A DNA stretch of 64,000 nucleotides from a virus. This document shows positions 41,988-64,000 of the stretch, one piece after another; positions within the stretch are counted from its first letter, which is position 1; each line of letters begins with the position of its first letter. The stretch covers positions 31,466 through 95,465 of the IMG/VR virus record IMGVR_UViG_3300032291_001492; one strand, 5' to 3'. The notes beneath the pieces are model-generated. The model saw only the letters and a program-made list of their open reading frames with translations. It searched no databases and was not told the DNA's origin. The translations under genes and the position numbers were made by a program.

Positions 41988-43184
41988 ATGATGAAAAAAG
42001 TAGCAATGATAGGTGTTGGTAAATTAGGACAAGATTGTGCTGAGGTTATGGCTGATGCGGGTAACGATGTAGTTGGGTATGATATAGAATATAGACTACC
42101 TATGTTTCCTATGAAAGAGACTATAGAAGAAGCAGTAAAAGATAGAGATATTATCTTTATCGCGGCACCAACACCTCACGATCCTATCTATGGTGGCGAA
42201 ACCCCGACAAGTCATTTACCTAATAAGGATTTTGATTATACAATAGTTAAAGATATTTTAGAAGAAGTTAATAAACACGTTAATAAAAGTCAATTAGTTG
42301 TCCTCATCAGTACCGTATTACCCGGAACAGTTCGCTCTTTACTTGAACCCTGTATCACTAACGCAAGGTTCATTTATAATCCTTATTTGATTGCAATGGG
42401 CACTATTAAGTGGGACATGGTCAATCCTGAAATGATAATTATTGGTACACAAGATGGTAGTATTACTGGTGATGCTAGTGAACTAATTGACTTTTATAAA
42501 GTGTTTATGAAAAATGATCCTCGCTATGAAGTAGGCACGTGGGATGAAGCAGAAGCAATTAAAATTTTCTATAATACATTTATAAGTACCAAACTTGCAT
42601 TAGTTAATATGATACAAGATGTAGCAGAAACTAATGGTAATATGAACGTTGATGTAGTCACGCAAGCACTAGCAAAATCAACACATCGTATCATGGGTCC
42701 TGCATATATGAAAGCAGGACTGGGTGATGCAGGTGCATGTCACCCTAGAGATAACATCGCACTGAGATATCTTGCTGAACGATTAGATTTAGGTTATGAT
42801 TTGTTTGATAGCATTATGACCGCTAGAGAAAAACAAGCCGAGCGTATGGCACAAAAGTGTTTGCAGTATGGCAAGAATATTACAATAATCGGTAAGGCAT
42901 ACAAGCCAGGTGTTCCTTATATAAACGGTAGTGCTAGTATGCTTGTAGGTCACTATATTCAAAAACATGGCGGCACCGTTCATTACTATGATTTAAATAC
43001 AGGCGATAATGAATTACGTGAAGATTGGACTCATGTATACTTAATTGGATATTGGGAGGAATGGGTAAACAGAATTTCATTACAAAATTCAGGGTGTGTT
43101 TTAATTGATCCATGGAGAATAGCAGAACACAGACACCACACTGGTGAAATTGTTTATTACGGTAACACTAGAAAGAAAAAATGA
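41988..43184 (+). CDS. UDP-glucose/GDP-mannose dehydrogenase family protein
   Basis: GVGKLG Rossmann motif; 'STVLPGT'; 'AEAIK.FYN'; catalytic-Cys loop 'GLGDAGACHPRD'; 'G.AYKP'. Confidence 0.85.
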   Translation: MMKKVAMIGVGKLGQDCAEVMADAGNDVVGYDIEYRLPMFPMKETIEEAVKDRDIIFIAAPTPHDPIYGGETPTSHLPNKDFDYTIVKDILEEVNKHVNKSQLVVLISTVLPGTVRSLLEPCITNARFIYNPYLIAMGTIKWDMVNPEMIIIGTQDGSITGDASELIDFYKVFMKNDPRYEVGTWDEAEAIKIFYNTFISTKLALVNMIQDVAETNGNMNVDVVTQALAKSTHRIMGPAYMKAGLGDAGACHPRDNIALRYLAERLDLGYDLFDSIMTAREKQAERMAQKCLQYGKNITIIGKAYKPGVPYINGSASMLVGHYIQKHGGTVHYYDLNTGDNELREDWTHVYLIGYWEEWVNRISLQNSGCVLIDPWRIAEHRHHTGEIVYYGNTRKKK

Positions 43185-49706: not shown

Positions 49707-52700
49707 ATGCTAAGAGATGTATTTTATTACGGTAAAAAACCTAACGTTCACCCAAAAGAAAAATTTGCAACTTCATTAGAAGATGCAAGAAAACAATCTA
49801 CTACAGAACATTTTTGGATAATCAATGAATATTGTGATTATCGTGGATTTGAATGGGATTTCGATTTTGAATTTTTACCAGACGAAGATGTATGGGCAGA
49901 AGAACATATAAATGTTTGGCCTAGTCAACATCAAAAAGATAGTGGTACCTGGTTATGTAATACAGATAATATATCCTCATTAATAATTTATCGGGCTGAT
50001 GTTAATCCTGTAAAGCGTAAAAACGAACTAAACATCTATTGGGTTATCAGAGATGTTATTGATAATACTAAATTTGATTTTAGTTGGCATCCTGACCCCA
50101 CAGACCCTCCATACATTTATATTTTCCCTACTAATTGGAACCCGGTAGGCGGCCCTGAATATCACATTGAAGGTGCGACAGAAAAGAAATACATTGCTAC
50201 CCAGATTGGTGTTACTATTCCTCAAATGGATAAATGGGAAGTCCCCGATTATATTGATGTAAGTGATTTTGATTTTAGTTGGGTTCCTCATCCCGACGAT
50301 CCTCCGTTTATATATGAGTTTGGTACGCAATGGCAGAAGACTTGCGGACCTCGTTATATAGTTGATGATGCCCAAGAAGTTAAGTATGTCAGTAATATTC
50401 GTGTTAAAGCACTAGCCAACATGACTAATTGGACATTACCTACCAATGTAGCTATTGATGATTTTGATTTTAGTTGGCACCCTGATTCAACAAGTCCCCC
50501 CTACATTTATAATTTTCCAACGCAGTGGGCAATGTCAGGGGGTCCAGTTTACACAGTAGAGGGTGCAACAGAAGTTAAGTATGTTGAAGACATGGTAGCA
50601 AAAGCAATTGCTGATCCTGAACGAAAGAATTGGGAAGTACCTGCATTTATTGACGTAGATAATTTTGACTTTAGCTGGCATCCATATGCCGAAGATGAAC
50701 CGTATATCTATCAATTTGGAACTCAATGGCAGAAGACAGGTGGACCTCGATTCTTAACTCCCGGAGTTCATAAGAATAGCCCAATAAAATATGTTGATAC
50801 AAGAATTATCAAATCAACTCGTTTGGCCTCACGTAAAAATTTTGCTATATTAAACAATCTCAGAATTGCTGAGTTTGACTATTCTTGGCACCCTGATACA
50901 ACAGAAGAACCATTCATCTATGTTTTTGGTAATCAACATTATCCAGGTGAAATCATGCCGACGATTGAATATGTTGTTCCTGGTGCAACTCAAATAAAAT
51001 ATGTCAATGACATTATTGCAACATTAGGACCTGACAGAACTAACTGGGTGATTATTCAACCTATCAATGAAGATAAGTTTGACTTCAGTTGGAAACCTAA
51101 CCCTAAAGACCCTCCGTATATCTATATATGGGGTAACTCTTATATAGATGGTAAGATTAAATCTACTATTGAATATCATGTTGACGGTGCGACAGAAAAG
51201 AAATACATGGACGAACTTGTTGAAGTGATTCCTGAATGGGATCGTTGGGACATTCCTAAAAACATTGACACAAGTAAATTTGATTTCACTTGGAGACCGG
51301 ATCCACTTGATGCTGATTTCATTTGGCAGTTTGGCACACAACATCAGAAGACAGGTGGTCCTCGTTATATAGTAGATGATGCTACTGAAATAAAATACGT
51401 AGAAGAAAACAGAGCAACCGCTATATTTACATCAATGAAACATTGGGAAATTCCAGAAGGGTTAGACATATCTGAGTTTGATTTTAGCTGGCATCCGGAT
51501 GCAACAGAAAAACCATACATATATGTTTTTGGAACTCAATGGGCTTTGACCGGTGGCCCTAAATATATTTCGCCTGGTGCAACAGAAGTGAAATATATTG
51601 ATGCACCTATTGCAAAGGCTGCACCTAATAGACAACACTGGATTATACCTGACAACATAGCAGTTGAAGAATTTGATTTTAGTTGGCATCCATATGCTGA
51701 AGATAAGCCATATATCTATCAATTTGGTACTCAATGGCAAAAGACGGGCGGCCCTCAATACATTACGCCTGGATCAGATGAAATGTCTCCGATCAAATAT
51801 GTTGATACTCGTATTTTAAAGGCAAGACAGTTAAAGTCTAAGGGAAGTTTTTCTGTAGTAGGTGATATCAAAATTAAAGATTTTGATTACTCATGGCATC
51901 CTGATAGTACTGAACAGCCATACATATATGTATTTGGTAACCAATGGCATCCTGCTGAACTAGAACCTACTATTGAATATCACGTGCCCGGAGCAACAAC
52001 TAAAAAATATATTCACGATATTGTTGCAACAACGGGTCCTGATATGAATCTATGGGATGTTCCTGAAGGTTTTAACAAAAATACGTTTGATTTTACTTGG
52101 AGACCTGATCCAACAAGTCCTCCCTACATTTATCAATTTGGTTCATTGATTGATAGAAATGATGGCCCTAGATATAATGTGCCCAATAATGACGGTGAAG
52201 TTGTATTCTTAGAAAGAAAAGAAATAGCATTACCCACTTCAGTTAAGGTTCCGCAATATTATATTGAAACCACACTAGAGGATCTTGTTAATAAACATCC
52301 AAACGAAATCTTTTGGGCGTTAAACAATGACATTGATTATGAGAAATTTGATTTTGATTGGAGACCTCAGATAGTTAATATTCAATGGGAAAACGAATAC
52401 GTATATGTGTTTGGTTCTCCTGAGAGTATACTTACTCAAACATATTTTGTTAATGCCGCTATGTATTTACAAGGCAATAAAGATTTTAAATTTGTTGAAA
52501 ATGAAACAATTAGTGAAAAATATCTAGCAACTTTATTCAAAAAATCTGATATGTTTTTTGTTGATAGAGGCAACAAAGAAGCACAAGAACGTTTTGACAA
52601 ATTAAAACAACGTTTCCCTACTATACAAAAGACAAGATATTTGAACACTTGGGTAGACACAATCAATCGTTGTATTAATCGTGCAACAACTAATTTATGT

Positions 52701-54239
52701 TGGATACTAAACAGTGAATTAGTATACGATAATTTTGATTTTGATTATTACCCTAACCCTTGGCAGATGAAAATGATTCAAGTGTTTGGAACTCAATGGA
52801 GTCATTGGGGTACTACCTTTATGGTTAATCGTGACACATTTGCTAAAGATACCAAATATGTTAAAGTCATTGAACACTTAAACAATCTTAACTTTGTAAA
52901 AGACCGTAGAGCAATTTCAACAAATGTATTGTACGATAAAATATATATTGACCATGGAAACAAACCTGTTCCTACTGATACTACAGTGATTCAATATGAA
53001 GAAAGTTATTTAAATACATTCAAAAAATTGTTAGACAAATTACCTGAAAAGAAAGAACATTTTGTTTGGATCACTAGTTCAATATGCGACTACACTGGAT
53101 TTGATTTTACTTATATTTGTGATCCATTTGCACGTGAACAGCTTCATGTATTTCCTAGCGACAAGCAGAAATTTGGAGATACATTTTTAATAAATGTTAA
53201 CAAATTACGTGAGTTGATTTCTGAAATGAATGTATTAGAAGATTACAACAAAGTAAATTATAATCAACACCAACGTGCAAAACGTTTACCCAGTCCAATT
53301 ATTATTACAGAAGGTGATACACATGTCTCTAGTATTGACACTAATTTTGATTTCCCTTATGCTACGTTTGTCACGATTGACAACAAAGACATACAAGTAA
53401 TTGATTCTGAACCCATGAGTTTATGGGATATAGAGAGTAAAACTATTCAGGTTACTAGTGTAGGTGGAACACGTATTGTTGTGCCTAAAGAAATTAAACA
53501 ACACTTCAAACGTGAATTATACGACTATCCATACATTAGCACAAATAGTAAACTTGCAAAATCTACCCCAATGGATATTGTGTTCTTAAGTAACGGTGAA
53601 ACAGGTGCAGATGAAAACTATGATCATTTAATAAAAACTACACAAGGTTTGCCTAATCGTGTAGTAAGAGTAGATGGTGTAAAGGGTCGTGTGCAAGCAT
53701 ATCATGCGGCAGCAGAAGCAAGCAATACTCCCTGGATGTTCACAGTTTTTGCTAAATTAAAAGTTAGTAACAAGTTTGATTGGAACTGGCAACCAGACAG
53801 ATTACAGATACCTAAACATTATGTATTTCACGCTAAGAATCCTGTCAATGGTTTAGTATACGGTCATATGGCTATGATTGCTTATAATAAAAAATTAACA
53901 CTTGCTAATAAAGGTAAAGGGCTTGACTTTACTATGGACGATGAGCATGAGGTTTTAGAAATCAATTCAGGAACTGCAAATTTTAATACGGATGAATGGT
54001 CAACTTGGCGTACTAGTTTCCGTGAAGCATTAAAGTTACGTGCTAATGAGGATCAGGTCAGTAAAGATAGACTTGATATTTGGTTAACTGTTGGTATGAG
54101 TAAATTCAACGAATATAGCATGGAAGGTGCTCAACATGCAGTTGAATACTATGAAGAAGTAAATGGTGACTTTGATAAGTTAAAACTGTCTTATGACTGG
54201 CCTTGGTTACGTGCTTACTTTGATAAGAAATACAAGTAA
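49707..54239 (+). CDS. 1510-aa protein with tandem 'FDFSWHP' repeats and GT-A-like C-terminal domain(s)
   Basis: Eleven ~57-60-aa tandem units 'W.IP..ID...FDFSWHPD....PYIY.FG.QW...GGP.Y...GATE.KY'. C-terminal domain is similar to the 27017 protein. Confidence 0.7.
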   Translation: MLRDVFYYGKKPNVHPKEKFATSLEDARKQSTTEHFWIINEYCDYRGFEWDFDFEFLPDEDVWAEEHINVWPSQHQKDSGTWLCNTDNISSLIIYRADVNPVKRKNELNIYWVIRDVIDNTKFDFSWHPDPTDPPYIYIFPTNWNPVGGPEYHIEGATEKKYIATQIGVTIPQMDKWEVPDYIDVSDFDFSWVPHPDDPPFIYEFGTQWQKTCGPRYIVDDAQEVKYVSNIRVKALANMTNWTLPTNVAIDDFDFSWHPDSTSPPYIYNFPTQWAMSGGPVYTVEGATEVKYVEDMVAKAIADPERKNWEVPAFIDVDNFDFSWHPYAEDEPYIYQFGTQWQKTGGPRFLTPGVHKNSPIKYVDTRIIKSTRLASRKNFAILNNLRIAEFDYSWHPDTTEEPFIYVFGNQHYPGEIMPTIEYVVPGATQIKYVNDIIATLGPDRTNWVIIQPINEDKFDFSWKPNPKDPPYIYIWGNSYIDGKIKSTIEYHVDGATEKKYMDELVEVIPEWDRWDIPKNIDTSKFDFTWRPDPLDADFIWQFGTQHQKTGGPRYIVDDATEIKYVEENRATAIFTSMKHWEIPEGLDISEFDFSWHPDATEKPYIYVFGTQWALTGGPKYISPGATEVKYIDAPIAKAAPNRQHWIIPDNIAVEEFDFSWHPYAEDKPYIYQFGTQWQKTGGPQYITPGSDEMSPIKYVDTRILKARQLKSKGSFSVVGDIKIKDFDYSWHPDSTEQPYIYVFGNQWHPAELEPTIEYHVPGATTKKYIHDIVATTGPDMNLWDVPEGFNKNTFDFTWRPDPTSPPYIYQFGSLIDRNDGPRYNVPNNDGEVVFLERKEIALPTSVKVPQYYIETTLEDLVNKHPNEIFWALNNDIDYEKFDFDWRPQIVNIQWENEYVYVFGSPESILTQTYFVNAAMYLQGNKDFKFVENETISEKYLATLFKKSDMFFVDRGNKEAQERFDKLKQRFPTIQKTRYLNTWVDTINRCINRATTNLCWILNSELVYDNFDFDYYPNPWQMKMIQVFGTQWSHWGTTFMVNRDTFAKDTKYVKVIEHLNNLNFVKDRRAISTNVLYDKIYIDHGNKPVPTDTTVIQYEESYLNTFKKLLDKLPEKKEHFVWITSSICDYTGFDFTYICDPFAREQLHVFPSDKQKFGDTFLINVNKLRELISEMNVLEDYNKVNYNQHQRAKRLPSPIIITEGDTHVSSIDTNFDFPYATFVTIDNKDIQVIDSEPMSLWDIESKTIQVTSVGGTRIVVPKEIKQHFKRELYDYPYISTNSKLAKSTPMDIVFLSNGETGADENYDHLIKTTQGLPNRVVRVDGVKGRVQAYHAAAEASNTPWMFTVFAKLKVSNKFDWNWQPDRLQIPKHYVFHAKNPVNGLVYGHMAMIAYNKKLTLANKGKGLDFTMDDEHEVLEINSGTANFNTDEWSTWRTSFREALKLRANEDQVSKDRLDIWLTVGMSKFNEYSMEGAQHAVEYYEEVNGDFDKLKLSYDWPWLRAYFDKKYK
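50030..52190 (+). repeat. Coding tandem repeat array (~170-190 bp unit, 11 copies) inside the 1510-aa gene
   Basis: Recurrent 'ttttgattttagttggcatcc' and 'tttggaactcaatggcagaagacaggtgg'-type segments. Confidence 0.85.
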
Positions 54240-54278
54240 AAGCTAATCCATTCTTTTATATTTTTTAATAAATATAGA

Positions 54279-54440
54279 ATGGGCAATCAATTAAAAACAC
54301 TGCAAGAAAATCTAGCCAAAGACTTAGTTAGTTTGGAAGATAATGAATTAGTGACAGAACAACAGTTGGACAAAATTACTGACGTATATAGTCAAGTGTA
54401 TGATATTATTACCAACGGTATTGATAAACCCAAAGAATAA
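54279..54440 (+). CDS. Small acidic 53-aa protein, not in ORF track (MGNQLKTLQENLAKDLVSLEDNELVTEQQLDKITDVYSQVYDIITNGIDKPKE)
   Basis: TAAATA 4 nt upstream of ATG; fills an intergenic gap. Confidence 0.55.
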   Translation: MGNQLKTLQENLAKDLVSLEDNELVTEQQLDKITDVYSQVYDIITNGIDKPKE

Positions 54441-54447
54441 ATTCATA

Positions 54448-54482
54448 TTGTAACATTATTGTAACACACTATGAAATAAATA
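54448..54482 (+). promoter_or_regulatory. Pho-box-like direct repeat plus TAAATA upstream of the plcP-like gene
   Basis: TTGTAAC-ATTA-TTGTAAC (54448-54465, 11-nt period), then 11 nt to TAAATA (54477-54482). Confidence 0.6.
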
Positions 54483-54489
54483 AGTCTAT

Positions 54490-55371
54490 ATGAAGACTTA
54501 CCGCTCTATCTTTATTAGTGATGTGCATCTCGGAACTAAAGACAGCCAAGCAGGAAAACTAAACAACTTTCTCAAACACAACACCTGCGATACACTTTAT
54601 CTTGTGGGTGACATTATAGATGCATGGCGAATACAACAAAACAAATGGCGTTGGAAACAAAGTCATACTAATGTAGTCCGACGTATACTAGGTCATGCCA
54701 AGCGAGGTACTAGAGTGATTTATGTTGCAGGCAATCACGATGAATTCTTAAGACCTATGATACCTTATGGATTTAGTTTTGGACTAATAGAGATACACAA
54801 TCAAATAGAACACATAGGTGCTGATGGCAAACACTATCTAGTAACGCACGGCGATTTGTTTGACGGCATTACCCGTTTAGCACCTTGGTTAGGTTTCTTG
54901 GGTGACAAAGCCTATGACTTTATATTATATCTTAATAGCAAGTTTAATTGGGTTCGTCATAAAATGGGATTTGGCTATTGGTCATTAAGCAAATATCTTA
55001 AATACAAAGTAAAAAAAGCAGTGGACTTTATATTTCAGTTTGAACGTAATTTAGCAGACTATTGTAAGAAGCGTGGGTTTGATGGTGTTATATGTGGACA
55101 TATACATCATGCTGAGATAAAAGAAATCAACGGCGTCATGTATATGAATGATGGTGATTGGGTTGAATCATGTACGGCATTAATAGAACATCATTCAGGT
55201 ACATGGGAAATTGTAACTTGGACTAAGGAGAAGGATGATGTGGGTATTGATACTAATAGCGGTACACATGAACGATCCAACAGACCAGCCCGGGAGAGTG
55301 GAGCTACAGTTCGCGGATCAAACAACTTGTCTGCAAGTACTAAGCACCCTCAAGTGGCAACTGAAATTTAA
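54490..55371 (+). CDS. plcP: PlcP-like (LpxH2-type) metallophosphoesterase, putative phospholipase C
   Basis: Calcineurin-like motifs 'ISDVHLG', 'LVGDIID.W', 'GNHDEFLR', 'HGD.FD', 'CGHIH', 'N.GDWVES.TAL.E'. Has GNHD rather than the GNRD of E. coli-type LpxH. Adjacent GT4 and Pho box. The last ~45 aa look like read-through across an overlapping gene. Confidence 0.72.
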   Translation: MKTYRSIFISDVHLGTKDSQAGKLNNFLKHNTCDTLYLVGDIIDAWRIQQNKWRWKQSHTNVVRRILGHAKRGTRVIYVAGNHDEFLRPMIPYGFSFGLIEIHNQIEHIGADGKHYLVTHGDLFDGITRLAPWLGFLGDKAYDFILYLNSKFNWVRHKMGFGYWSLSKYLKYKVKKAVDFIFQFERNLADYCKKRGFDGVICGHIHHAEIKEINGVMYMNDGDWVESCTALIEHHSGTWEIVTWTKEKDDVGIDTNSGTHERSNRPARESGATVRGSNNLSASTKHPQVATEI

Positions 55372-55411
55372 AAGTTTTAAGGTGGTAGGAGAATGCAAAA
55401 AACAATTCTGA
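55235..55411 (+). CDS. Small 58-aa 'WVL...Cx21C' protein overlapping the plcP 3' end, not in ORF track
   Basis: Strong SD AAGGAG at 55225-55230. Sequence MMWVLILIAVHMNDPTDQPGRVELQFADQTTCLQVLSTLKWQLKFKSFKVVGECKKQF has the same motif spacing as the tmRNA-internal ORF. Confidence 0.65.
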   Translation: MMWVLILIAVHMNDPTDQPGRVELQFADQTTCLQVLSTLKWQLKFKSFKVVGECKKQF

Positions 55412-56403
55412 TAGTTACAGACAATTTACCGGATCAAATAAATGGTGTCGTTACAACATACAAAAATATTGAGGCTTGTGCGCTTTTGGATGGTTATAAT
55501 GTTGTTTACATTACTCCCGGGGACTTCCGCCACTTTGATTGTCCTGGCTACAACGAAGTCAAGATTGCCTATCCAAGGCAGATGGGCAAGAAGATTGAGG
55601 AGATCGGTCCGGATTATATCCATATCGCCACAGAGGGTCCTATTGGTTTGTCTGCTAGAAAATATCTTTCAAAACATAATCTTCGGTACAATACTGCTTA
55701 TCATACTAAGTTCCCTGAAGGACTTAGAGCCTTATTTGGTATCCCTGAGGCTCTTACTTGGCCTTTAGTCAGATGGTTTCATAAACACAGTGGCAAAGTA
55801 TTGACCACTACAGATACAATGGTAAAGGAGTTAAAAAATCATGGCTTTGATGGAGATATTATTCCTTGGACTCGTGGGGTTGATCGTACTATATTTTCTC
55901 CTGCCTTAAGAGATGAATGGCATGGTCAAGAAATTATTTTACTATGTGTTAGTCGTGTATCTAAAGAAAAAAACTTAGAAGATTTTTTTGAACTAGACTA
56001 TCCCAATAGTCGCAAGATAATGGTGGGCGATGGCCCTATGTTAGAAACTTACAAAAAGCAGTATCCTGACATAGATTTTGTGGGATTCAAAACAGGTGTA
56101 GAACTTGCTACCTATTATGCCAATGCTGATGTTTTTGTGTTTCCTAGCAAATGGGAAACGTTTGGTATTGTTATGATTGAAGCAATGGCTTGTGGTACCC
56201 CTGTTGCGGCTTATCCTGTGCAAGGCCCGTTAGATGTTATAGATGAGGGTGTGACTGGTTGTATGAATGATGAGTTAAAACAAGCAGTTAAGGATGCTCT
56301 AATGCTATCTAGAGGATTAGTATATCATGGCAGTCAGCGTTGGACTTGGGAACGTGCTTGGGAAATATTCCGTGACAATCTAGTTGACAAACATCATGAA
56401 TAA
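55393..56403 (+). CDS. GT4 glycosyltransferase, Agt-like (diacylglycerol glycosyltransferase candidate)
   Basis: 'ILIVTD....QINGVVTT', 'IHIATEGPIG', 'YHTKFPE', 'W.RGVD', 'RVSKEKN', 'FPS..ETFG.V..EAMACGTPVAA'. SD AGGAG. Lies directly after the plcP-like gene. Confidence 0.8.
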   Translation: MQKTILIVTDNLPDQINGVVTTYKNIEACALLDGYNVVYITPGDFRHFDCPGYNEVKIAYPRQMGKKIEEIGPDYIHIATEGPIGLSARKYLSKHNLRYNTAYHTKFPEGLRALFGIPEALTWPLVRWFHKHSGKVLTTTDTMVKELKNHGFDGDIIPWTRGVDRTIFSPALRDEWHGQEIILLCVSRVSKEKNLEDFFELDYPNSRKIMVGDGPMLETYKKQYPDIDFVGFKTGVELATYYANADVFVFPSKWETFGIVMIEAMACGTPVAAYPVQGPLDVIDEGVTGCMNDELKQAVKDALMLSRGLVYHGSQRWTWERAWEIFRDNLVDKHHE

Positions 56404-56412
56404 ATATATAAT
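56384..56412 (+). promoter_or_regulatory. Sigma70 promoter with an embedded TAAATA motif
   Basis: TTGACA-N17-TATAAT; TAAATA at 56401-56406. Confidence 0.75.
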
Positions 56413-56430
56413 AACTTAAGGACTATATTT

Positions 56431-56778
56431 ATGGATACAGATTTTTTTCGGAAATACATTAATTTGTTAGAAGACCAAGAAGTGCAACAATTGCGTCATG
56501 GTGATTTTGAACAACGTCAACTCCAACCAACAGAAATGCAAAAGTTAACTGGTAAAACTGTTAACGCATGGGCTCAACAACTGGGATTAGATTTATCTAA
56601 AATACAAACAGGATTGTTCACATTGAACGGTGGTGTGCAAGCTCCGGCAGTAAACGTTGGTATGCCCTCTCAAGTTGATCCAGAAACAATGGATGAAATG
56701 AAAAGAGCATTGGGGTCTATTGGAATCACTGTCATCCCAGGAGGTATTGGATTGTATCTAGTACTGAATGCTGGGTAA
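56431..56778 (+). CDS. Hypothetical protein
   Basis: SD AAGGA and a promoter upstream. Confidence 0.7.
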   Translation: MDTDFFRKYINLLEDQEVQQLRHGDFEQRQLQPTEMQKLTGKTVNAWAQQLGLDLSKIQTGLFTLNGGVQAPAVNVGMPSQVDPETMDEMKRALGSIGITVIPGGIGLYLVLNAG

Positions 56779-56797: not shown

Positions 56798-57151
56798 ATG
56801 CGTATCATAGAAATCCTTACCGAATCACATCATAACTTTACCACTGCTTATCACATTACTACTGTTGAAAATGCAGACAACATCACATATGGTGGATTGG
56901 ATCCATATGATGGCAATGCCTATCTAATAGTAGATACCGGTAATAAAGAAAAACTTAGTAATGATTTCAGAACTGTTGCCGGTTGGATGCTGGCTAAAAC
57001 TGAACGCACAGAAGAACCACTGACTTTACTAAAAGTAAATATAACAGGAATCCCATTAGAAAAAGATAGTGGTTGGTATGTATCCAAGGCACCTATTCCA
57101 GCTGATCGTATCACTGATATGGGTGAAGATGCATTCAATAGCGTAGCATAA
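56798..57151 (+). CDS. Hypothetical protein, possibly ADP-ribosyltransferase/Tpt1-like fold
   Basis: 'AYHITT..N...I..GGL.P...YL...LLKV...IP..I' pattern; TAAATA 4 nt upstream. Confidence 0.45.
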   Translation: MRIIEILTESHHNFTTAYHITTVENADNITYGGLDPYDGNAYLIVDTGNKEKLSNDFRTVAGWMLAKTERTEEPLTLLKVNITGIPLEKDSGWYVSKAPIPADRITDMGEDAFNSVA

Positions 57152-57155
57152 TTAC

Positions 57156-57184
57156 TTGACAATTACTTTGAATAAATATATACT
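57156..57184 (+). promoter_or_regulatory. Sigma70 promoter of the tmRNA with an embedded TAAATA motif
   Basis: TTGACA (57156-57161)-N17-TATACT (57179-57184); TAAATA at 57173-57178. Confidence 0.8.
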
Positions 57185-57190
57185 GTAAGT

Positions 57191-57620
57191 TATTGCTGTA
57201 TGAAGCAAAGAGAAAAGTGTTCTGGACGGGGGTGCGAATCCCCCCAGGTCCACCATAAGGAAAACTATGAACACAACATTTGTGTGGGTGTTGACGTTTA
57301 CTGTTTTGGGAGTAAATCCTGAGCATAAGGCGTTTCCCAAATATCCATCCAAACAAGAGTGTGAGCAAGCGTTAGTGCAGACAAGAGCAGAGTACAAGGC
57401 AAAGAACAAGCATATAGCTGGCGCCTGTACACTGATTATAAAATAGTATCCTTATGATGGGCCTGCATAGTTTCGACAGGGCAACAAGTAAATGAGTGGA
57501 CAGCACGGTAGGCGATGACCGTAAATCAAGCAAAAAAAGTAAACGCAAACGACTCACAGTTTAGCATTGCAGCCTGATTCAGGCAGCTAGGGTAAGACAT
57601 ACCTCGTAACAGAAACTCAG
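57191..57620 (+). ncRNA. ssrA: Circularly permuted (two-piece) tmRNA: acceptor piece ~57191-57255, intervening segment 57256-57458, coding piece 57459-~57620; tag ANDSQFSIAA*
   Basis: T-arm GGGGG-TGCGAAT-CCCCC followed by CAGGTCC-ACCA (57245-57255) lies upstream of the 5' end GGGCCTG (57459-57465). Together they form a 7-bp acceptor stem with the G3-U Ala determinant. 'TTTCGAC' D-like region; CAGGGCA (57477-57483) pairs with TGTTCTG (57218-57224). Tag ORF at 57545-57577. Outer ends are estimates. Confidence 0.92.
57267..57446 (+). CDS. 59-aa ORF inside the tmRNA intervening segment (MNTTFVWVLTFTVLGVNPEHKAFPKYPSKQECEQALVQTRAEYKAKNKHIAGACTLIIK)
   Basis: SD TAAGGA immediately after the CCA. Occupies 180 of the 203-nt intervening segment. 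Motif match to the 55235 ORF. Confidence 0.7.
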   Translation: MNTTFVWVLTFTVLGVNPEHKAFPKYPSKQECEQALVQTRAEYKAKNKHIAGACTLIIK

Positions 57621-57644
57621 AATAGGCTCTTCGGGGCCTATTTT
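57621..57644 (+). terminator. Intrinsic terminator after the tmRNA
   Basis: AATAGGCTC-TTCG-GGGCCTATT followed by TT. Confidence 0.8.
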
Positions 57645-57765
57645 CCCGTTAAGAATGCATATTTATTGAGTAAAGAGTAAAATTATTGGTAGATATTTAT
57701 ATTAATAAATATTATTCTAGCCTGTAAAACAGGTTTAAATTTAAATCATAAAGGAAATATTTAAA

Positions 57766-58311
57766 ATGAAGAAAATTACAATCGCATCTCTATTTGCATT
57801 TTTAGCAATCAGCGCATCAGCCGCAGACTTTGTTACTGTTGACGTTGACTCAGTTAAAAACAACGTAAGTGGTGTTCAAAGCACCGCACAATATGTTCGT
57901 GCAGGTAAAGATATCGGCGGAATTCAATTTGGGCTACAAAGCCGCACCGCAGTTTCACATACAGGTGGTATGTTGAATAGTTTAGAACTTACCGGTGGTA
58001 AAGCTATTGGCGTTATTACACCCTTCGTTGGTGTAGGTTTTGATAATGGATTGAATGGTGCACGTGGTGCTGACTATCAATATGGACTATTAGGTGCAAC
58101 AACTGGTATGAAAGTTGGTCCTGGTTTTGCTCTAGTAGGTGTTAAAACACGTTTAGGAACAACAGCCGCAGTTGAAACAAAGCAAACTATCGCTTTTGGT
58201 ACATACAGTATTCCTGTTGCAAAGAATGTTGCATTGAATATTAACGCAAGCAAAAGCTATCAAGACATTCAAGAGAATGCTTATGGTTTAGGTTTAGGTT
58301 TTAGATTCTAA
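57766..58311 (+). CDS. Outer-membrane beta-barrel protein
   Basis: Signal peptide MKKITIASLFAFLAISASA, alternating Gly/aromatic strands and C-terminal BAM-type signal 'YGLGLGFRF'. Confidence 0.75.
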   Translation: MKKITIASLFAFLAISASAADFVTVDVDSVKNNVSGVQSTAQYVRAGKDIGGIQFGLQSRTAVSHTGGMLNSLELTGGKAIGVITPFVGVGFDNGLNGARGADYQYGLLGATTGMKVGPGFALVGVKTRLGTTAAVETKQTIAFGTYSIPVAKNVALNINASKSYQDIQENAYGLGLGFRF

Positions 58312-58329
58312 TCATTGATTGATTATACC

Positions 58330-58356
58330 AAAGGGGCTTTACAGCCCCTTTTTTTT
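58330..58356 (+). terminator. Intrinsic terminator
   Basis: AAAGGGGCT-TTAC-AGCCCCTTT followed by a T-run. Confidence 0.88.
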
Positions 58357-58659: not shown

Positions 58660-59304
58660 ATGAAACCCAAAATTGCATTATTTCTTCATCAACCTAAATG
58701 TTCAGTACAAAGCGGCAATGGCATAATGAAAGCGTTGTCCGATTATTATAATTTTAAAATTTTTACCAGACATGAATTAGAAAAAGATTTCTTTGATGAT
58801 GTTGATATGGTTGCAATACCCGGTGGTATTGGTGATAGCGATAGTTATGATTATCTAATGAAAATCAATGCCACACGTATTAAACAGTTTGTTAATCGAG
58901 GTGGCAAGTATCTTGGAATATGTATGGGTGCATATTGGGCCGATAAAAATTATATGGGCTTATTAGACAATGTTCGTGCAGTGCAATACATCAAACGTCC
59001 AGGAACTGACACAAAACGACCTCATGCAAAAAATTTAAAAGTTACTTGGGACAATCAACCTCGTAATATGTTTTTTTATGACGGGTGTGCGTTGATCGGA
59101 GACCGTACTAAGTTTAATACTATAGCAACGTATATGAATAATGATCCAATGGCAATCATCAAAGATAACATAGGGTTAATAGGGTGTCATCCTGAAAGCG
59201 ATCCCTACTGGTATGATAGTTATAGTTGGATGCGTGGTAAATATCACAACGGGGAACACCACGCTTTATTATTAGATTTTGTTGATAGATTGGTAAAACA
59301 ATGA
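58660..59304 (+). CDS. Class I glutamine amidotransferase-like (BPL_N-type) protein
   Basis: 'AIPGG', nucleophile elbow 'GGKYLGICMGAY' and 'HPE'. Confidence 0.75.
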   Translation: MKPKIALFLHQPKCSVQSGNGIMKALSDYYNFKIFTRHELEKDFFDDVDMVAIPGGIGDSDSYDYLMKINATRIKQFVNRGGKYLGICMGAYWADKNYMGLLDNVRAVQYIKRPGTDTKRPHAKNLKVTWDNQPRNMFFYDGCALIGDRTKFNTIATYMNNDPMAIIKDNIGLIGCHPESDPYWYDSYSWMRGKYHNGEHHALLLDFVDRLVKQ

Positions 59305-59350: not shown

Positions 59351-59385
59351 TTGTCACATTACTGTCACATAATTCTAAGTAAATA
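59351..59385 (+). promoter_or_regulatory. Pho box plus TAAATA upstream of pstS
   Basis: TTGTCAC-ATTA-CTGTCAC (59351-59368) matches the PhoB consensus CTGTCAT-A(A/T)A(T/A)-CTGTCA(C/T); 11 nt to TAAATA (59380-59385). Confidence 0.8.
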
Positions 59386-59412: not shown

Positions 59413-60417
59413 ATGAAAAAGTTACTTGGTATGTTGATAGCAACAGTTGCATTAACTGTTCAAGCCACAGATATAACAGGGGCAGGTGCAACTTTCCCCT
59501 ATCCCATTTATGCTAAATGGGCAGAAGCATATAAAAAAGAAACAGGTGTTGGTCTTAACTATCAATCAATTGGTAGTTCAGGTGGCATTCGTCAAATTAA
59601 CGCAAAAACAGTAGCGTTTGGCGCTACAGATGCACCAGTATCAGGCGAGAATTTAGACAAGAATAACCAAGTTCAATTTCCAGCAATCATTGGTGGAACA
59701 GTTCCTGTTATTAACTTAGATGGCTTTAAGCCAGGTGAATTACGAATCACTGGTCTTGTATTAGCAGAAGTTTACATGGGTAACATTGTGAAATGGAATG
59801 ATCCTAAACTGGTAGCATTGAACCCAGGCAAGCGTCTTCCTGATGAAGCTATCACTGTGGTGCATCGTGCAGATGGTTCAGGTACGACATTCAACTGGAC
59901 AGACTACTTGAGTGCAGTCAGTAAAGAGTTCAACGACCGAGTAGGTAAAGGTGCCGCAGTCAAATGGCCTGCTGCCAGTTCAGTAGGTGGCAAAGGTAAC
60001 GAAGGCGTTGCTGCCAACGTGAACCGTATCAAAGGCTCAATTGGTTATGTTGAGTATGCCTATGTTAAAAAGAATAACATGAACTTTATGCAATTGCAAA
60101 ATAAAAGCGGCAAGTATGTTAGTCCGGATGATTTAACATTTGCAGCCGCGGCATCAGGAGCAGATTGGTTCAGTGTTCCGGGTATGGGTGTTAGTATTGT
60201 AGATCAAAGGGGTGATAATGTATGGCCAGTTTCTACTGCAAGTTTCATTATCATGTATAAGAATCCTGATGACAAAAAAGCGTCAACAGAAGTTTTGAAA
60301 TTTTTTGATTGGGCATTCAAGAATGGTAAAAAAATGAGTGAAGAATTAGATTATGTACATTTACCTGACAGTCTAACAAAACAAATTCGTGAAAGAGTTT
60401 GGACTCAAATTAAATAA
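59413..60417 (+). CDS. pstS: Phosphate ABC transporter substrate-binding protein PstS
   Basis: Signal peptide; 'ITGAGATFPYP.Y.KWA', 'NYQSIGS.GG', 'VVHRADGSGTTF.WT.YL', 'GKGNEGVA', 'IGYVEYAY'. Confidence 0.96.
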   Translation: MKKLLGMLIATVALTVQATDITGAGATFPYPIYAKWAEAYKKETGVGLNYQSIGSSGGIRQINAKTVAFGATDAPVSGENLDKNNQVQFPAIIGGTVPVINLDGFKPGELRITGLVLAEVYMGNIVKWNDPKLVALNPGKRLPDEAITVVHRADGSGTTFNWTDYLSAVSKEFNDRVGKGAAVKWPAASSVGGKGNEGVAANVNRIKGSIGYVEYAYVKKNNMNFMQLQNKSGKYVSPDDLTFAAAASGADWFSVPGMGVSIVDQRGDNVWPVSTASFIIMYKNPDDKKASTEVLKFFDWAFKNGKKMSEELDYVHLPDSLTKQIRERVWTQIK

Positions 60418-60462: not shown

Positions 60463-60483
60463 AGGACCTTCGGGTCCTTTTTT
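60463..60483 (+). terminator. Intrinsic terminator after pstS
   Basis: AGGACC-TTCG-GGTCCT followed by a T-run. Confidence 0.9.
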
Positions 60484-61605: not shown

Positions 61606-62709
61606 ATGGCATCGCATGTTTCTGACAATTTGACTATTACTAGTGTTCAAGCCCGCAAGGCAATGCTAAAAGCGTTTAAAGCTAAACGCCCACTCTTTAT
61701 CTGGGGCCCTCCCGGTATCGGCAAGAGTGAGGTGGTTGCCGAAGTTACTGAGGAACTCGGTGGCTTTATGATTGACTTGCGTATGGCGCAAATGGAACCT
61801 ACTGACATTCGGGGTATTCCGTTCTTTAATAAAGAAATTAATAAAATGGATTGGGCGGCACCAGTTGACTTGCCCGATGAAGAACTAGCATCACAATATC
61901 CGATTGTAGTGTTGTTCTTGGATGAAATGAATAGTGCAAGCCCCGCAGTACAAGCGGCAGGCTATCAGTTGATTTTGAATCGCCGTGTAGGTAAGTATGT
62001 CTTGCCAGATAACGTTGTTATCGTTGCGGCAGGTAATCGTGACAGTGATAAGGGTGTTACTTATCGTATGCCAATGCCCCTTGCTAATCGTTTCTTGCAT
62101 TTGGAAATGCGAGCCGACTTTGCATCATGGCAGAACTGGGCTGTGAATAAAGGTATTCACAAGGACGTAGTTGGTTATTTGAGTTTTGCTAAACAAGACT
62201 TGTACGAATTTGATAGTAAATCGTCAAGCCGTGCATTCGCTACACCACGCACATGGTGTTTCGTAAGTGATTTGTTGAATGAGGAAGATGATACTGATAG
62301 TGATACCTTGTTCAATTTGATTTCCGGTGCTGTTGGTGAGGGTCTTGCTGTTAAGTTTGCCGCTCACCGCAAAGTTGCAGGTCGTATGCCCGAGCCAGCT
62401 GATATCTTGTCAGGCAAAGTGACCGATCTTGCAGTTAAAGAAATTAGTGCAATGTACTCATTGACTATTTCTATGTGCTATGAATTGCGTGATGCAATTC
62501 AAACTAAAAAAGTGGACATGAAAAAGTTCCATGAAATGGCTGACAATTTCTTGACATACATTATGAAAAACTTTGAGACTGAGTTGGTCGTAATGGGTGC
62601 TAAGATTGCATTGAAAACATACAAGTTGCCAATCGAACCAAGTCAATTGAAAAACTTTGATGAGTTTCACAAAAAGTTTGGTAAGTACATTGTGGAAGCA
62701 GGCAACTAA
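61606..62709 (+). CDS. MoxR-like AAA+ ATPase
   Basis: Walker A GPPGIGKS, Walker B 'LFLDEMN', sensor 'AAGN', arginine finger 'LANRF' and 'TPRTW'. Confidence 0.9.
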   Translation: MASHVSDNLTITSVQARKAMLKAFKAKRPLFIWGPPGIGKSEVVAEVTEELGGFMIDLRMAQMEPTDIRGIPFFNKEINKMDWAAPVDLPDEELASQYPIVVLFLDEMNSASPAVQAAGYQLILNRRVGKYVLPDNVVIVAAGNRDSDKGVTYRMPMPLANRFLHLEMRADFASWQNWAVNKGIHKDVVGYLSFAKQDLYEFDSKSSSRAFATPRTWCFVSDLLNEEDDTDSDTLFNLISGAVGEGLAVKFAAHRKVAGRMPEPADILSGKVTDLAVKEISAMYSLTISMCYELRDAIQTKKVDMKKFHEMADNFLTYIMKNFETELVVMGAKIALKTYKLPIEPSQLKNFDEFHKKFGKYIVEAGN

Positions 62710-62938
62710 GTTGGACAATCAAAAGTTAAAAATAACTTTTGCTCCTGGGGCCTTCGATAATTTCGAAGGTACCCAAGAGGAGTTGGACCAATTGGTTTCT
62801 GAAATCAAACAGATGTTTGCATCAGGTGATGCATTTGAAAAGGCAACACCGATCGATTTGGATGATGTCCTTGAAGAATTATCTGATGAAGATATTTTTC
62901 ACCTTTTGCAAGAACCTTCCGACAGAAAACTACAGTAG
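62657..62938 (+). CDS. Small acidic hypothetical protein (true start possibly TTG at 62711)
   Basis: 'FAPGAFDNFEGTQEELDQLV.EI'; sits between the ATPase and the VWA gene. Confidence 0.55.
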   Translation: MMSFTKSLVSTLWKQATKLDNQKLKITFAPGAFDNFEGTQEELDQLVSEIKQMFASGDAFEKATPIDLDDVLEELSDEDIFHLLQEPSDRKLQ

Positions 62939-62967
62939 TTGACAATAACACAAAACTGTAGTACAAT
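62939..62967 (+). promoter_or_regulatory. Sigma70 (early) promoter
   Basis: TTGACA-N17-TACAAT. Confidence 0.78.
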
Positions 62968-62993
62968 AAAGCATTGTAACAAAAGGAATTAAT

Positions 62994-64000
62994 ATGAGTG
63001 AAGTAATTGCACCTACTAAAAAACGTAAACGTAGTAAGAAATTTGAGAATCTTGTAGGTCCTACTGATTCTAAGATTGATATTCAAGCACGTGAACGTTT
63101 GGTAACTGCACGTATTGGATTGCTATTGCGTCATGCATTTTTCGGTAATCTAGCAACTCGCCTTCAACTTATCAATGCTGATGAATGGTGTAGTACTGCG
63201 GCAACAGATGGTCAAAAATTCTACTACAATAGCCGCTTCATTATGATGTTGAAGCCCAAAGAAGTTGAGTTTCTTGTAGCGCATGAGGTGTTGCACGTGG
63301 TATATGATCACATGGGTCGTAGAGGCAGTCGTGACCCTCAAATTTGGAATATTGCTGATGACTATTGCGTTAATGCTGACTTGAAACGACATAAGGTTGG
63401 TCAATTCATTACTACAGTGCCTTGCTTGTACGAACAAAAATATGACGGCAAGCCTGCTGAGGAAGTATATGATGACTTGATGAAGAATGTTCAAAAGATT
63501 AGTGTTGATGATTTGGTTGATCAAATGATTGATGATCATCTAGAAGGTGAAGGCGATAGTGATGGTGAGGGAGACGAAGAAGAAGGTAAAGGTCGTCCTA
63601 AAATGTCACCCGAAGAACGTGAACGTGTCCGTCAAGAAGTTAAGCAAGCAATTATCAATGCGGCAAGCACTGCCGAAGCTGGTCAACTACCACTAGGCGT
63701 TGAGCGTTTGATTAAGCAACACACTAACCCTGTGATGCCCTGGCGTGAATTGATTCAAACTAATTTGACTAGTGCTATTCGTACAGACTACACTTGGATG
63801 CGCCCATCACGTAGAGGTTGGCACATGGATGCTATCATGCCCGGAATGACTCCCGGTGAAGAAATTGATGTTGTCGTGACACTTGACATGTCAGGTAGTA
63901 TCAGTCAAAAACAAGCACAAGATTTCTTGGGTGAGATCGGTGGTATGATGAATGCGTTTGATGGTTACAAGGTTCATGTATTTTGTTTTGACACTGAAAT
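62994..64000 (+). CDS. DUF2201-type metallopeptidase-like + VWA domain protein, 3'-truncated by the window edge (not in ORF track)
   Basis: SD AAAGGA, ATG 62994, frame open to the end. 'TAATDG', 'AHEVLH' (HExxH), 'WNIA.D..VN', acidic linker, 'W.RPSRR' and MIDAS 'LDMSGS'. Confidence 0.88.
   Translation, partial: MSEVIAPTKKRKRSKKFENLVGPTDSKIDIQARERLVTARIGLLLRHAFFGNLATRLQLINADEWCSTAATDGQKFYYNSRFIMMLKPKEVEFLVAHEVLHVVYDHMGRRGSRDPQIWNIADDYCVNADLKRHKVGQFITTVPCLYEQKYDGKPAEEVYDDLMKNVQKISVDDLVDQMIDDHLEGEGDSDGEGDEEEGKGRPKMSPEERERVRQEVKQAIINAASTAEAGQLPLGVERLIKQHTNPVMPWRELIQTNLTSAIRTDYTWMRPSRRGWHMDAIMPGMTPGEEIDVVVTLDMSGSISQKQAQDFLGEIGGMMNAFDGYKVHVFCFDTE

Follow-up and report, generated by a model that had tools for sequence, protein, structure and literature searches.

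A PlcP-Agt-type gene pair behind a Pho-box-type promoter element in a freshwater jumbo phage

The PlcP proteins of Phaeobacter, SAR11, Pseudomonas aeruginosa, Burkholderia cenocepacia and Methylosinus belong to a family of phosphate-starvation phospholipases C, as established by genetics and lipidomics (PMC4796936; PMC8528852; PMC13691135; PMC9239053). The arrangement of plcP with agt, the gene for a glycosyltransferase, has been published (PMC4796936), and the bacterial plcP operons are reported to be controlled by a Pho box (PMC4796936; PMC8528852). Here we analyze a locus of this type in phage DNA, located in a stretch of 64,000 nucleotides (the window) that corresponds to bases 31466–95465 of the 95,465-bp IMG/VR virus record IMGVR_UViG_3300032291_001492. 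It comprises plcP, encoding a metallophosphoesterase, and agt, encoding a glycosyltransferase of family 4 (GT4), preceded by a Pho-box-type direct repeat and followed approximately 3 kb downstream by pstS (Table 1). We consider it likely that this module is a bacterial PlcP-Agt lipid-renovation operon that is borne by a phage and wired to the phosphate-starvation response of the host. This reading draws on the family membership of three proteins and the anatomy of the operon, on the conserved design that the plcP and pstS promoters have in common, on purifying selection and on a wide distribution within one clade of jumbo phages.

The phage module has the same protein families, gene order and orientation, and a Pho-box-type site, in common with the PlcP-Agt operons of Phaeobacter MED193, SAR11 HTCC7211, P. 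aeruginosa (PA3219-PA3218), B. cenocepacia (BCAL2364-2365) and Methylosinus OB3b. It differs from these in being encoded by a jumbo phage, in its apparently leaderless plcP and in a gene of 57 codons that is overprinted on the end of plcP. No dagK follows, whereas the operon of B. cenocepacia contains one, and unlike in the bacterial operons Agt is dispensable in most of the phage relatives. With regard to phages, Zeng and Chisholm reportedly found in 2012 that the cyanophage genes pstS, phoA and phoH are driven by the PhoR/PhoB system of the host. The present locus is similar in that a set of phage genes, including pstS, stands behind host-type Pho boxes with no phage regulator found, but its cargo is a membrane-lipid pathway and its host lineage is proteobacterial, not cyanobacterial.

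The product of plcP matches the Pfam family Metallophos (PF00149, E = 5.6e-10). The residues D11, H13, G40-D41..D44, G81-N82-H83-D84, H120 and G203-H204..H206 are invariant in alignments of 45 and of 10 sequences, and represent the universal metallophosphoesterase motifs only (DxH, GDxxD, GNH[D/E], H and GHxH). Together with the Pfam matches of the second gene given below, this bears out the description of the locus in a first-pass annotation, made from the sequence alone, as a GNHD-type metallophosphoesterase followed by a GT4. A maximum-likelihood tree of 104 proteins groups the 19 phage sequences in a single clade with a support of 100. This clade branches from within the set of 80 proteobacterial PlcP-type proteins, beside two sequences from metagenome-assembled genomes (MAGs) and a Pseudomonas/Azotimanducaceae group, and five true LpxH proteins are placed on a long, fully supported outgroup branch. 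The stem branch of the phage clade is long, at 0.89 changes per site. An exhaustive profile-free search yielded 920 clusters (E up to 1e-30), of which the nearest non-phage ones are 40–56% identical over residues 1–246. When one genome of each prokaryotic species was scanned, with the 10-sequence alignment as query since the 45-sequence one is too diverse, homologues of 50–60% identity were identified in Alpha-, Beta- and Gammaproteobacteria, including Pseudomonas, Limnohabitans, Thiobacillus, Azospirillum and Sphingomonas. Proteins of Pseudomonas are among the nearest named relatives (58–60% identity), and PA3219, the experimentally validated PlcP of P. aeruginosa, is 46–47% identical to the PlcP proteins of S. 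meliloti and Phaeobacter (PMC8528852). Comparison with 51 relatives gave a ratio of nonsynonymous to synonymous substitution rates (dN/dS) of 0.086, indicating strong purifying selection on PlcP. The conserved core extends from residue 1 to approximately residue 246, and residues 249–293 or thereabouts form an unselected tail.

LpxH (UDP-2,3-diacylglucosamine diphosphatase) shares with the phage protein a calcineurin-like core and a helical lipid-binding cap. In an AlphaFold2 model of the phage PlcP, with a predicted local distance difference test score (pLDDT) of 84.6, the core sandwich carries a helical insertion at residues 126–194 that resembles this cap, and LpxH structures (PDB 6pib, 5b49 and 5k8k) are the nearest solved sequences and folds, but at an identity of only 18–21%. 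Close homologues are labeled "UDP-2,3-diacylglucosamine pyrophosphatase LpxH" in databases. Automatic annotation and virome surveys of auxiliary metabolic genes likewise file the gene as "lpxH", under biosynthesis of lipopolysaccharide (LPS), as in papers on Lake Baikal metatranscripts and Mediterranean surface viromes. If the phage protein were a true LpxH, the module would alter lipid A or LPS, which we regard as extremely unlikely. The curated LpxH models are indeed the best named matches of the phage protein, but it remains far under their thresholds, with 32.9 bits against a cut-off of 190.35 for the equivalog TIGR01854 and 45.1 against 134 for NF003743. In a search of five of these proteobacterial genomes with the LpxH model, a separate LpxH-type gene was found in every one (182–336 bits, above 190 in four of the five), and the PlcP-type paralogues, which the model also hit in four of the genomes, scored 39–42 bits, near the value of the phage protein. 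Bacteria with the closest homologues thus also hold a separate, high-scoring LpxH, the tree splits the two families with full support, and the partners of the phage gene are an Agt-type glycosyltransferase and pstS, with no lpx genes. We rejected the LpxH identity on the equivalog scores, the separate LpxH genes and the tree; judged by sequence, the phosphoesterase is a member of the PlcP phospholipase C family, with which the first-pass annotation had compared it, and not an LpxH.

Calcineurin-like phosphoesterases are catalytically versatile, and the long stem branch of the phage clade would be compatible with a drift to another phosphodiester substrate, such as nucleotide or cyclic-nucleotide signals, with no action on lipids. 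Such a change of substrate appears very unlikely, as the model retains the LpxH/PlcP-type helical cap, with LpxH proteins as its top fold matches, the protein is under strong purifying selection at 50–60% identity to bacterial PlcP, and it is paired with an Agt-type glycosyltransferase whose diacylglycerol-site residues are intact.

The product of agt matches the Pfam families Glycos_transf_1 (E = 2.9e-24) and Glyco_transf_4 (E = 3.4e-13). Of 80 bacterial loci, 58 have a full-length homologue of this protein (37–45% identical) beside plcP, and in 56 of these it lies downstream and on the same strand, in agreement with the earlier statement that the two genes are often adjacent in proteobacteria. 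In a tree of 76 GT4 proteins, 15 phage and 34 plcP-adjacent glycosyltransferases are split with a support of 100 from 27 other GT4 paralogues, which come from the genomes of five of these bacteria. The glycosyltransferase of the window therefore groups with the plcP-adjacent Agt/GTcp type rather than with other GT4s. The phage glycosyltransferases form one clade, and its sisters belong to the same gammaproteobacterial lineage as those in the PlcP tree, which suggests that plcP and agt were acquired together.

Mutations that inactivate GTcp, a purified SAR11 enzyme, affect His104, Arg163 and Trp320, which make up the diacylglycerol site, as well as Gly82, Gly85, Arg190, Lys195, Thr257-Phe258-Gly259 and Glu264; its UDP-sugar motifs are GRVAxEKN and FPSxTDTFG (PMC8231724). 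As judged by motif and numbering, and not by alignment of the GTcp sequence, the counterparts in the phage protein are H104, T160-R161 and W319 for the former group, and G82, G85, R188, K193, T256-F257-G258 and E263 for the latter. Most of the GTcp-type residues are conserved at 95% or more among 55 phage and plcP-adjacent glycosyltransferases. The UDP-sugar motifs of the phage protein read SRVSKEKN (residues 187–194) and FPSKWETFG (residues 250–258), and the catalytic-dyad position is occupied by E instead of D; MshA has E at the equivalent position (PMC8231724). The protein falls in the Agt/GTcp clade of glycolipid synthases and is predicted to glycosylate diacylglycerol. Donor specificity varies among characterized Agt/GTcp members (PMC8231724; PMC8528852), and whether glucose (Glc) or glucuronic acid (GlcA) is donated is not readable from the Agt sequence.

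A further suggestion, that a dehydrogenase encoded at 41988 could supply UDP-glucuronate to Agt, is not supported. The open reading frame (ORF) in question, 41988–43184, scores 158.8 bits on a generic nucleotide-sugar dehydrogenase model with a cut-off of 189.8, and is far under all the specific models. It is translationally embedded in a separate, long and tight glycan/radical-SAM operon (radical-SAM, SPASM, B12-radical-SAM, epimerase, methyltransferase and carbamoyltransferase genes) located 11 kb upstream of the module and without a Pho box.

The direct repeat ahead of plcP, TTGTAAC-ATTA-TTGTAAC, has the 11-nt period that had been described, and is the only exact copy in the window. The heptamer TTGTAAC itself is not over-represented (14 observed, 19.75 expected), and with three mismatches allowed the repeat has 15 matches in the window compared to 18 in shuffled sequences. 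As it is not significant by counting within the window, its meaning rests on comparison with the box of pstS and with the promoters of relatives. For this purpose we used 80 related phage loci, of which 61 are non-redundant for the plcP promoter, and five complete relatives. Exact sites of the form YTGTMAY-N4-YTGTMAY occur only twice in the 95-kb record, once before plcP and once before pstS. Taking [CT]TGT[AC]A[CT]-N4-[CT]TGT[AC]A[CT] as the box class and a match at 13 or more of the 14 positions as the threshold, a box is found before plcP in 39 of the 61 non-redundant loci (64%) and before pstS in all 13, as compared to 0.4% of random 103-nt windows from the same loci; most of the loci without a box ahead of plcP have plcP directly behind pstS. 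At the orthologous position, the half-sites of relatives read TTGTAAT, TTGTAAC, TTGTCAC or TTGTCAT. Since TGTAAY is interchanged with TGTCAC or TGTCAT at the same position, the TGTAAC of the window can be regarded as a variant of the canonical TGTCAC form. With respect to the Pho-box consensus of E. coli, CTGTCAT-N4-CTGTCAT (quoted in PMC8528852), the plcP box matches at 8 and the pstS box at 11 of 14 positions.

PhoB-dependent promoters have such a box in place of the −35 element, approximately 10 nt ahead of the −10 element. Here, the hexamer TAAATA lies 11 nt past the box in 30 of the 40 promoters of plcP, and in 12 of the 13 of pstS. A role of this hexamer as simply the T4-type late promoter (TATAAATA) was considered and not adopted, as the octamer is depleted in the window (3 copies, approximately 14 expected) and the two bases ahead of TAAATA vary among relatives. 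Four complete genomes have one or two exact boxes each, before plcP, pstS or the gene for an acidic 215-residue protein; one exact box (in G010) has no gene start within 200 nt, and the fifth complete genome is without an exact box. Among bacterial plcP upstream regions, 21% score 12 or higher on the box, against a background of 1.4%. Neither this record nor any of four complete relatives was found to encode a DNA-binding domain of the OmpR/PhoB type (PF00486), and a host factor must therefore read the box. The repeat is best described as a conserved Pho-box-type element that is shared with the phage pstS and to which PhoB is predicted to bind; the Pho-box control element proposed in the first-pass annotation is in this form borne out.

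The plcP gene has no Shine-Dalgarno sequence. Its ATG follows TAAATA at a distance that is 4–8 nt in all 40 plcP promoters, whereas the pstS leader measures 25–39 nt and contains AAGGAG. The short distance and the missing Shine-Dalgarno sequence indicate that the plcP mRNA probably has little or no leader.

In many relatives (G008 L174:793–1437 (-), L176, L055, L061 and others), plcP is followed by the gene for an acidic protein of 215–218 residues that is rich in Ala, Val and Glu, with coiled-coil-like ends and no Pfam match. It is absent from this record, and in two complete genomes its gene has an exact Pho-type box and a TAAATA of its own.

A third member of the module was absent from the earlier reading and is new here. 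An ORF of 57 codons lies in the +2 frame relative to plcP, over the end of that gene, and is preceded at 7 nt by a strong AAGGAG. It was found in 75 of the 80 related phage loci, at 61–95% identity. Its dN/dS is 0.13 in its own frame versus 2.4 in the frame of the plcP tail, and the latter frame (approximately the last 45 codons, pLDDT of about 50) is interrupted by a stop in 30 of 74 relatives. The predicted protein has 14 invariant columns, two cysteines among them, and its AlphaFold2 model (pLDDT 87.5) shows a beta-beta-alpha-beta fold. It has no match in Pfam or PHROG and no significant one among PDB folds (best E = 0.17), and its matches in the ESM Atlas are unnamed viral clusters only. 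A profile search found no counterpart in the 80 bacterial plcP loci or in Pelagibacter phage Mosig, whose Mosig_00121, a small ORF that overlaps the 3′ end of the plcP homologue of that phage, does not visibly resemble the 57-residue protein. The product of this conserved gene may be a phage-specific partner that serves as an activator, as a membrane-targeting factor or in the handling of diacylglycerol or phospho-head groups.

The distribution of the genes separates a core from accessory members. Within a single clade of jumbo phages, plcP is present on at least 598 IMG/VR contigs. In the five complete relatives PlcP is present in every genome, and Agt and PstS in one each; among the 80 related loci, agt follows plcP in 25, PstS is encoded within 6 kb in 16, and plcP directly adjoins pstS in about a quarter. 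The full set of PlcP, small protein, Agt and PstS is present in the window. The conserved core across the phage clade is therefore PlcP with the 57-residue protein, and Agt and PstS are accessory. For the lipid-remodeling module proposed earlier this means that both enzymes do occur here, but that the pairing is not typical of the clade, in which PlcP is universal and Agt occurs in only about a third of the loci. What is selected at the core is the predicted head-group cleavage rather than a full lipid swap.

For the locus of the window, the following sequence of events can be proposed. In a phosphate-starved host, phosphorylated PhoB would bind the 7+4+7 box, which stands in for a −35 element, and would activate synthesis of a leaderless plcP mRNA, with the 57-codon gene and agt on the same transcript; the phage pstS would be activated likewise through its own box. 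The binuclear-metal phosphoesterase PlcP, whose helical cap resembles that of LpxH, would cleave the head group of phospholipids of the phosphatidylethanolamine/phosphatidylglycerol (PE/PG) type to yield diacylglycerol. Where present, Agt would glycosylate the diacylglycerol from a UDP-sugar to a phosphorus-free glycolipid, so that the bilayer stays intact. The freed phospho-head groups would supply phosphorus for phage genomes of approximately 350 kb, with PstS raising the import of phosphate. In this manner, the phage probably taps the host membrane for phosphorus.

Several observations weigh against the module reading. The tie to characterized PlcP and Agt proteins runs via named orthologues and published identities, and not via placement in the trees. 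As most relatives are without agt, the module cannot in general serve to preserve the membrane. PlcP releases phospho-head groups and not free phosphate, and no phage phosphatase was identified for the step after head-group release. At the promoter, the half-site TTGTAAC matches CTGTCAT at only 4 of 7 positions, TAAATA is poor as a −10 element for sigma-70 and lacks the final T, and exact boxes per genome are no more numerous than those of a reversed control pattern, so that the case for a Pho box rests on position and conservation. The same three features of the promoter would fit an operator of a phage-specific or another host regulator with a superficial likeness to a Pho box, especially since the commonest half-sites, TTGTAAT and TTGTAAC, depart from the consensus at the C of the TGTCA core. 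This alternative is unlikely, however. Orthologous promoters swap TGTAAY with the canonical TGTCAC or TGTCAT, the box is most consistently found before pstS, the archetypal gene of the Pho regulon, and the pstS promoters of candidate hosts share its geometry and tolerate A at the same position. The lack of an OmpR/PhoB-type winged-helix protein in the phage genomes, as noted for this record and four complete relatives, also speaks against a regulator of the phage itself.

The lack of Agt in most relatives is pertinent to another explanation as well, in which PlcP, with or without Agt, changes the envelope for ends of the phage, such as superinfection exclusion, receptor masking or a weakening of the inner membrane that helps or times lysis. 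PlcP without Agt would leave phospholipid depleted and not replaced, a conserved small partner protein is co-encoded, and lipid renovation has been linked to changed membrane proteins and phage receptors (PMC9804370). We nevertheless consider this role rather unlikely, if slightly less so than a foreign operator. The promoter design of plcP is common only to pstS and one other gene, and plcP adjoins pstS both in the quarter of the related loci mentioned above and in Pelagibacter phage Mosig; the shared promoter and the adjacency tie plcP to the phosphate economy. Linkage to a holin or endolysin gene was not seen. A variant closer to the module reading is that the selected unit consists of PlcP and the 57-residue protein as its phage-specific partner, which together would strip head groups from host phospholipid at a late stage of infection under phosphate starvation, to cover the cost of 350-kb genomes; we put this forward tentatively, as a possibility that is more doubtful than not. 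For the window itself, with its complete gene set, a phage-borne PlcP-Agt operon under host phosphate control is the reading that we favor.

The pstS gene downstream was identified by the NCBIfam PstS equivalog NF008171 (395.7 bits, cut-off 339) and the Pfam family PBP_like_2. Its product shares 77–80% identity with the PstS proteins of some Burkholderiales, Limnohabitans sp. DCL3 among them. This identity, together with a permuted transfer-messenger RNA (tmRNA) of the betaproteobacterial type in the window, suggests that the host probably belongs to the freshwater Burkholderiales, for example to Limnohabitans. In the Burkholderiales with the most similar PstS, the pstS promoters contain a 7+4+7 box, approximately 10–11 nt and TAnAGT, and the half-sites of these boxes include TGAAAC, TGCAAT and TGTAAC. 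Limnohabitans sp. DCL3 itself has a plcP-agt pair and pstS within approximately 12 kb (NZ_CP171842.1, around 537–550 kb). Its PstS is 78% identical to that of the phage but its PlcP only 54%, and the phage pstS and plcP therefore differ in origin or age.

The record is that of a real phage. Structural genes lie upstream on the 95-kb contig: PHROG matches identify the major head protein (phrog_138, E = 6.7e-98) and the portal protein (phrog_213, E = 1.2e-105), and further virion proteins and an SbcCD-type nuclease are encoded there as well. The head protein is approximately 65% identical to those of jumbo myophages of 285–470 kb (PA5oct, Vibrio phage 2.275.O, Escherichia phage A4 and Sinorhizobium phage Phosso), and plcP-carrying relatives include genomes of 331–367 kb with a CheckV completeness of 95–100%. 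The record derives from a freshwater jumbo phage of the lytic type, with a genome of roughly 350 kb.

Table 1. Features of the plcP-agt-pstS region, in positions of the window
Feature	Position	Strand	Basis
Pho-box-type direct repeat TTGTAAC-ATTA-TTGTAAC (7+4+7 nt), in the place of a −35 element	54448..54465	+	Sequence; orthologous sites of relatives
−10-like hexamer TAAATA, 11 nt past the box, with the plcP ATG 7 nt further on	54477..54482	+	Promoter comparison
plcP, PlcP-family metallophosphoesterase, predicted phospholipase C, 293 aa	54490..55371	+	Pfam, tree, motifs, model, dN/dS
Shine-Dalgarno sequence AAGGAG of the 57-codon gene	55225-55230	+	Sequence
Overprinted 57-codon gene in another frame, spanning the plcP tail and reaching 19 nt into agt	55238..55411	+	Conservation, dN/dS
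agt, Agt/GTcp-type GT4, predicted diacylglycerol glucosyl/glucuronosyl transferase, 336 aa	55393..56403	+	Pfam, tree, residues
Pho box of pstS, TTGTCAC-ATTA-CTGTCAC, followed by 11 nt and TAAATA (59380-59385)	59351..59368	+	Sequence, comparison
pstS, phosphate ABC transporter substrate-binding protein	59413..60417	+	NCBIfam equivalog, Pfam
Terminator-like hairpin 3′ of pstS	60463-60478	+	Sequence

The gap between plcP and agt measures 21 nt, and agt has its own Shine-Dalgarno sequence, AGGAG, just upstream. A perfect sigma-70 promoter (TTGACA-17-TATAAT) at 56384–56412 (+), inside the last codons of agt, starts the next unit, in which two small ORFs without an assigned function follow (56431–56778 and 56798–57151). 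The permuted, two-piece tmRNA gene of betaproteobacterial type is located at 57142–57646 (+), with scores of 110.6 bits for Rfam RF01850 and 124.5 bits for RF04321, and has a near-perfect sigma-70 promoter at 57156–57184. Between plcP-agt and pstS, at 57766–58311 (+), a protein of 181 residues is encoded that resembles a small outer-membrane beta-barrel, with a signal-peptide-like N-terminus, a body rich in Gly, Ala and Thr and the C-terminal sequence GLGFRF; it has no match in Pfam or PHROG, and a terminator follows its gene at 58330–58351. A glutamine-amidotransferase/BPL_N-like protein is encoded directly ahead of the pstS promoter (58660–59304, +), and 3′ of pstS, at 61606–63998 (+), are the genes for a MoxR-type AAA ATPase and a DUF2201 metallopeptidase/VWA protein. 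Directly upstream of the module, at 49707–54239 (+), lies the gene for a protein of 1510 residues with many repeat modules of the FDFSWHPD...PYIY.FGTQW type and no Pfam match.

A nucleotide search of 54200–56500 against GenBank phages gave no match. At the protein level, homologues of PlcP are present in GenBank phages, namely in the cultured pelagimyophage Mosig EXVC030M of Pelagibacter (Mosig_00120, 48% identical) and in a freshwater cyanophage, Synechococcus phage S-SRM01 (35% identical). These phages, with genomes of 141 kb and 241 kb, respectively, belong to different, Kyanoviridae-type families, and their genes are annotated as LpxH. The Mosig gene is arranged divergently beside pstS (MT647606.1, 93031–94866), and the 150-nt spacer contains TTTAACA-AAAA-CTTAACA, again with a period of 11 nt. 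No Agt-type glycosyltransferase adjoins the Mosig gene, and a search of 50,697 GenBank phage records gave no match to the Agt of the window above 32.7% identity. The plcP homologue is not discussed in the Mosig genome announcement. A literature search that combined PlcP with terms for phages, viruses and auxiliary genes retrieved no description of a phage-encoded PlcP or Agt, with most subscription journals outside its reach.

The known phosphorus-related auxiliary genes of phages (pstS, phoH and phoA) act on uptake or on soluble esters. If the proposed function is correct, a phage PlcP-Agt module would add the host membrane as a phosphorus reserve. By a rough estimate, a cell of the size of E. 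coli has approximately 2 × 10^7 phospholipids and one double-stranded DNA genome of 350 kb contains 7 × 10^5 phosphorus atoms, and the phosphorus of the membrane could thus in principle suffice for several tens of phage genomes. The cultured Pelagibacter phage Mosig, with HTCC1062, offers a tractable system for a phage PlcP. As the gene is filed as "lpxH", estimates of the influence of viruses on phosphorus cycling, and on membrane lipid composition under phosphate stress, may fall short, and a widespread viral route of phosphorus mobilization in lakes and oceans would, if our reading is correct, have been overlooked.

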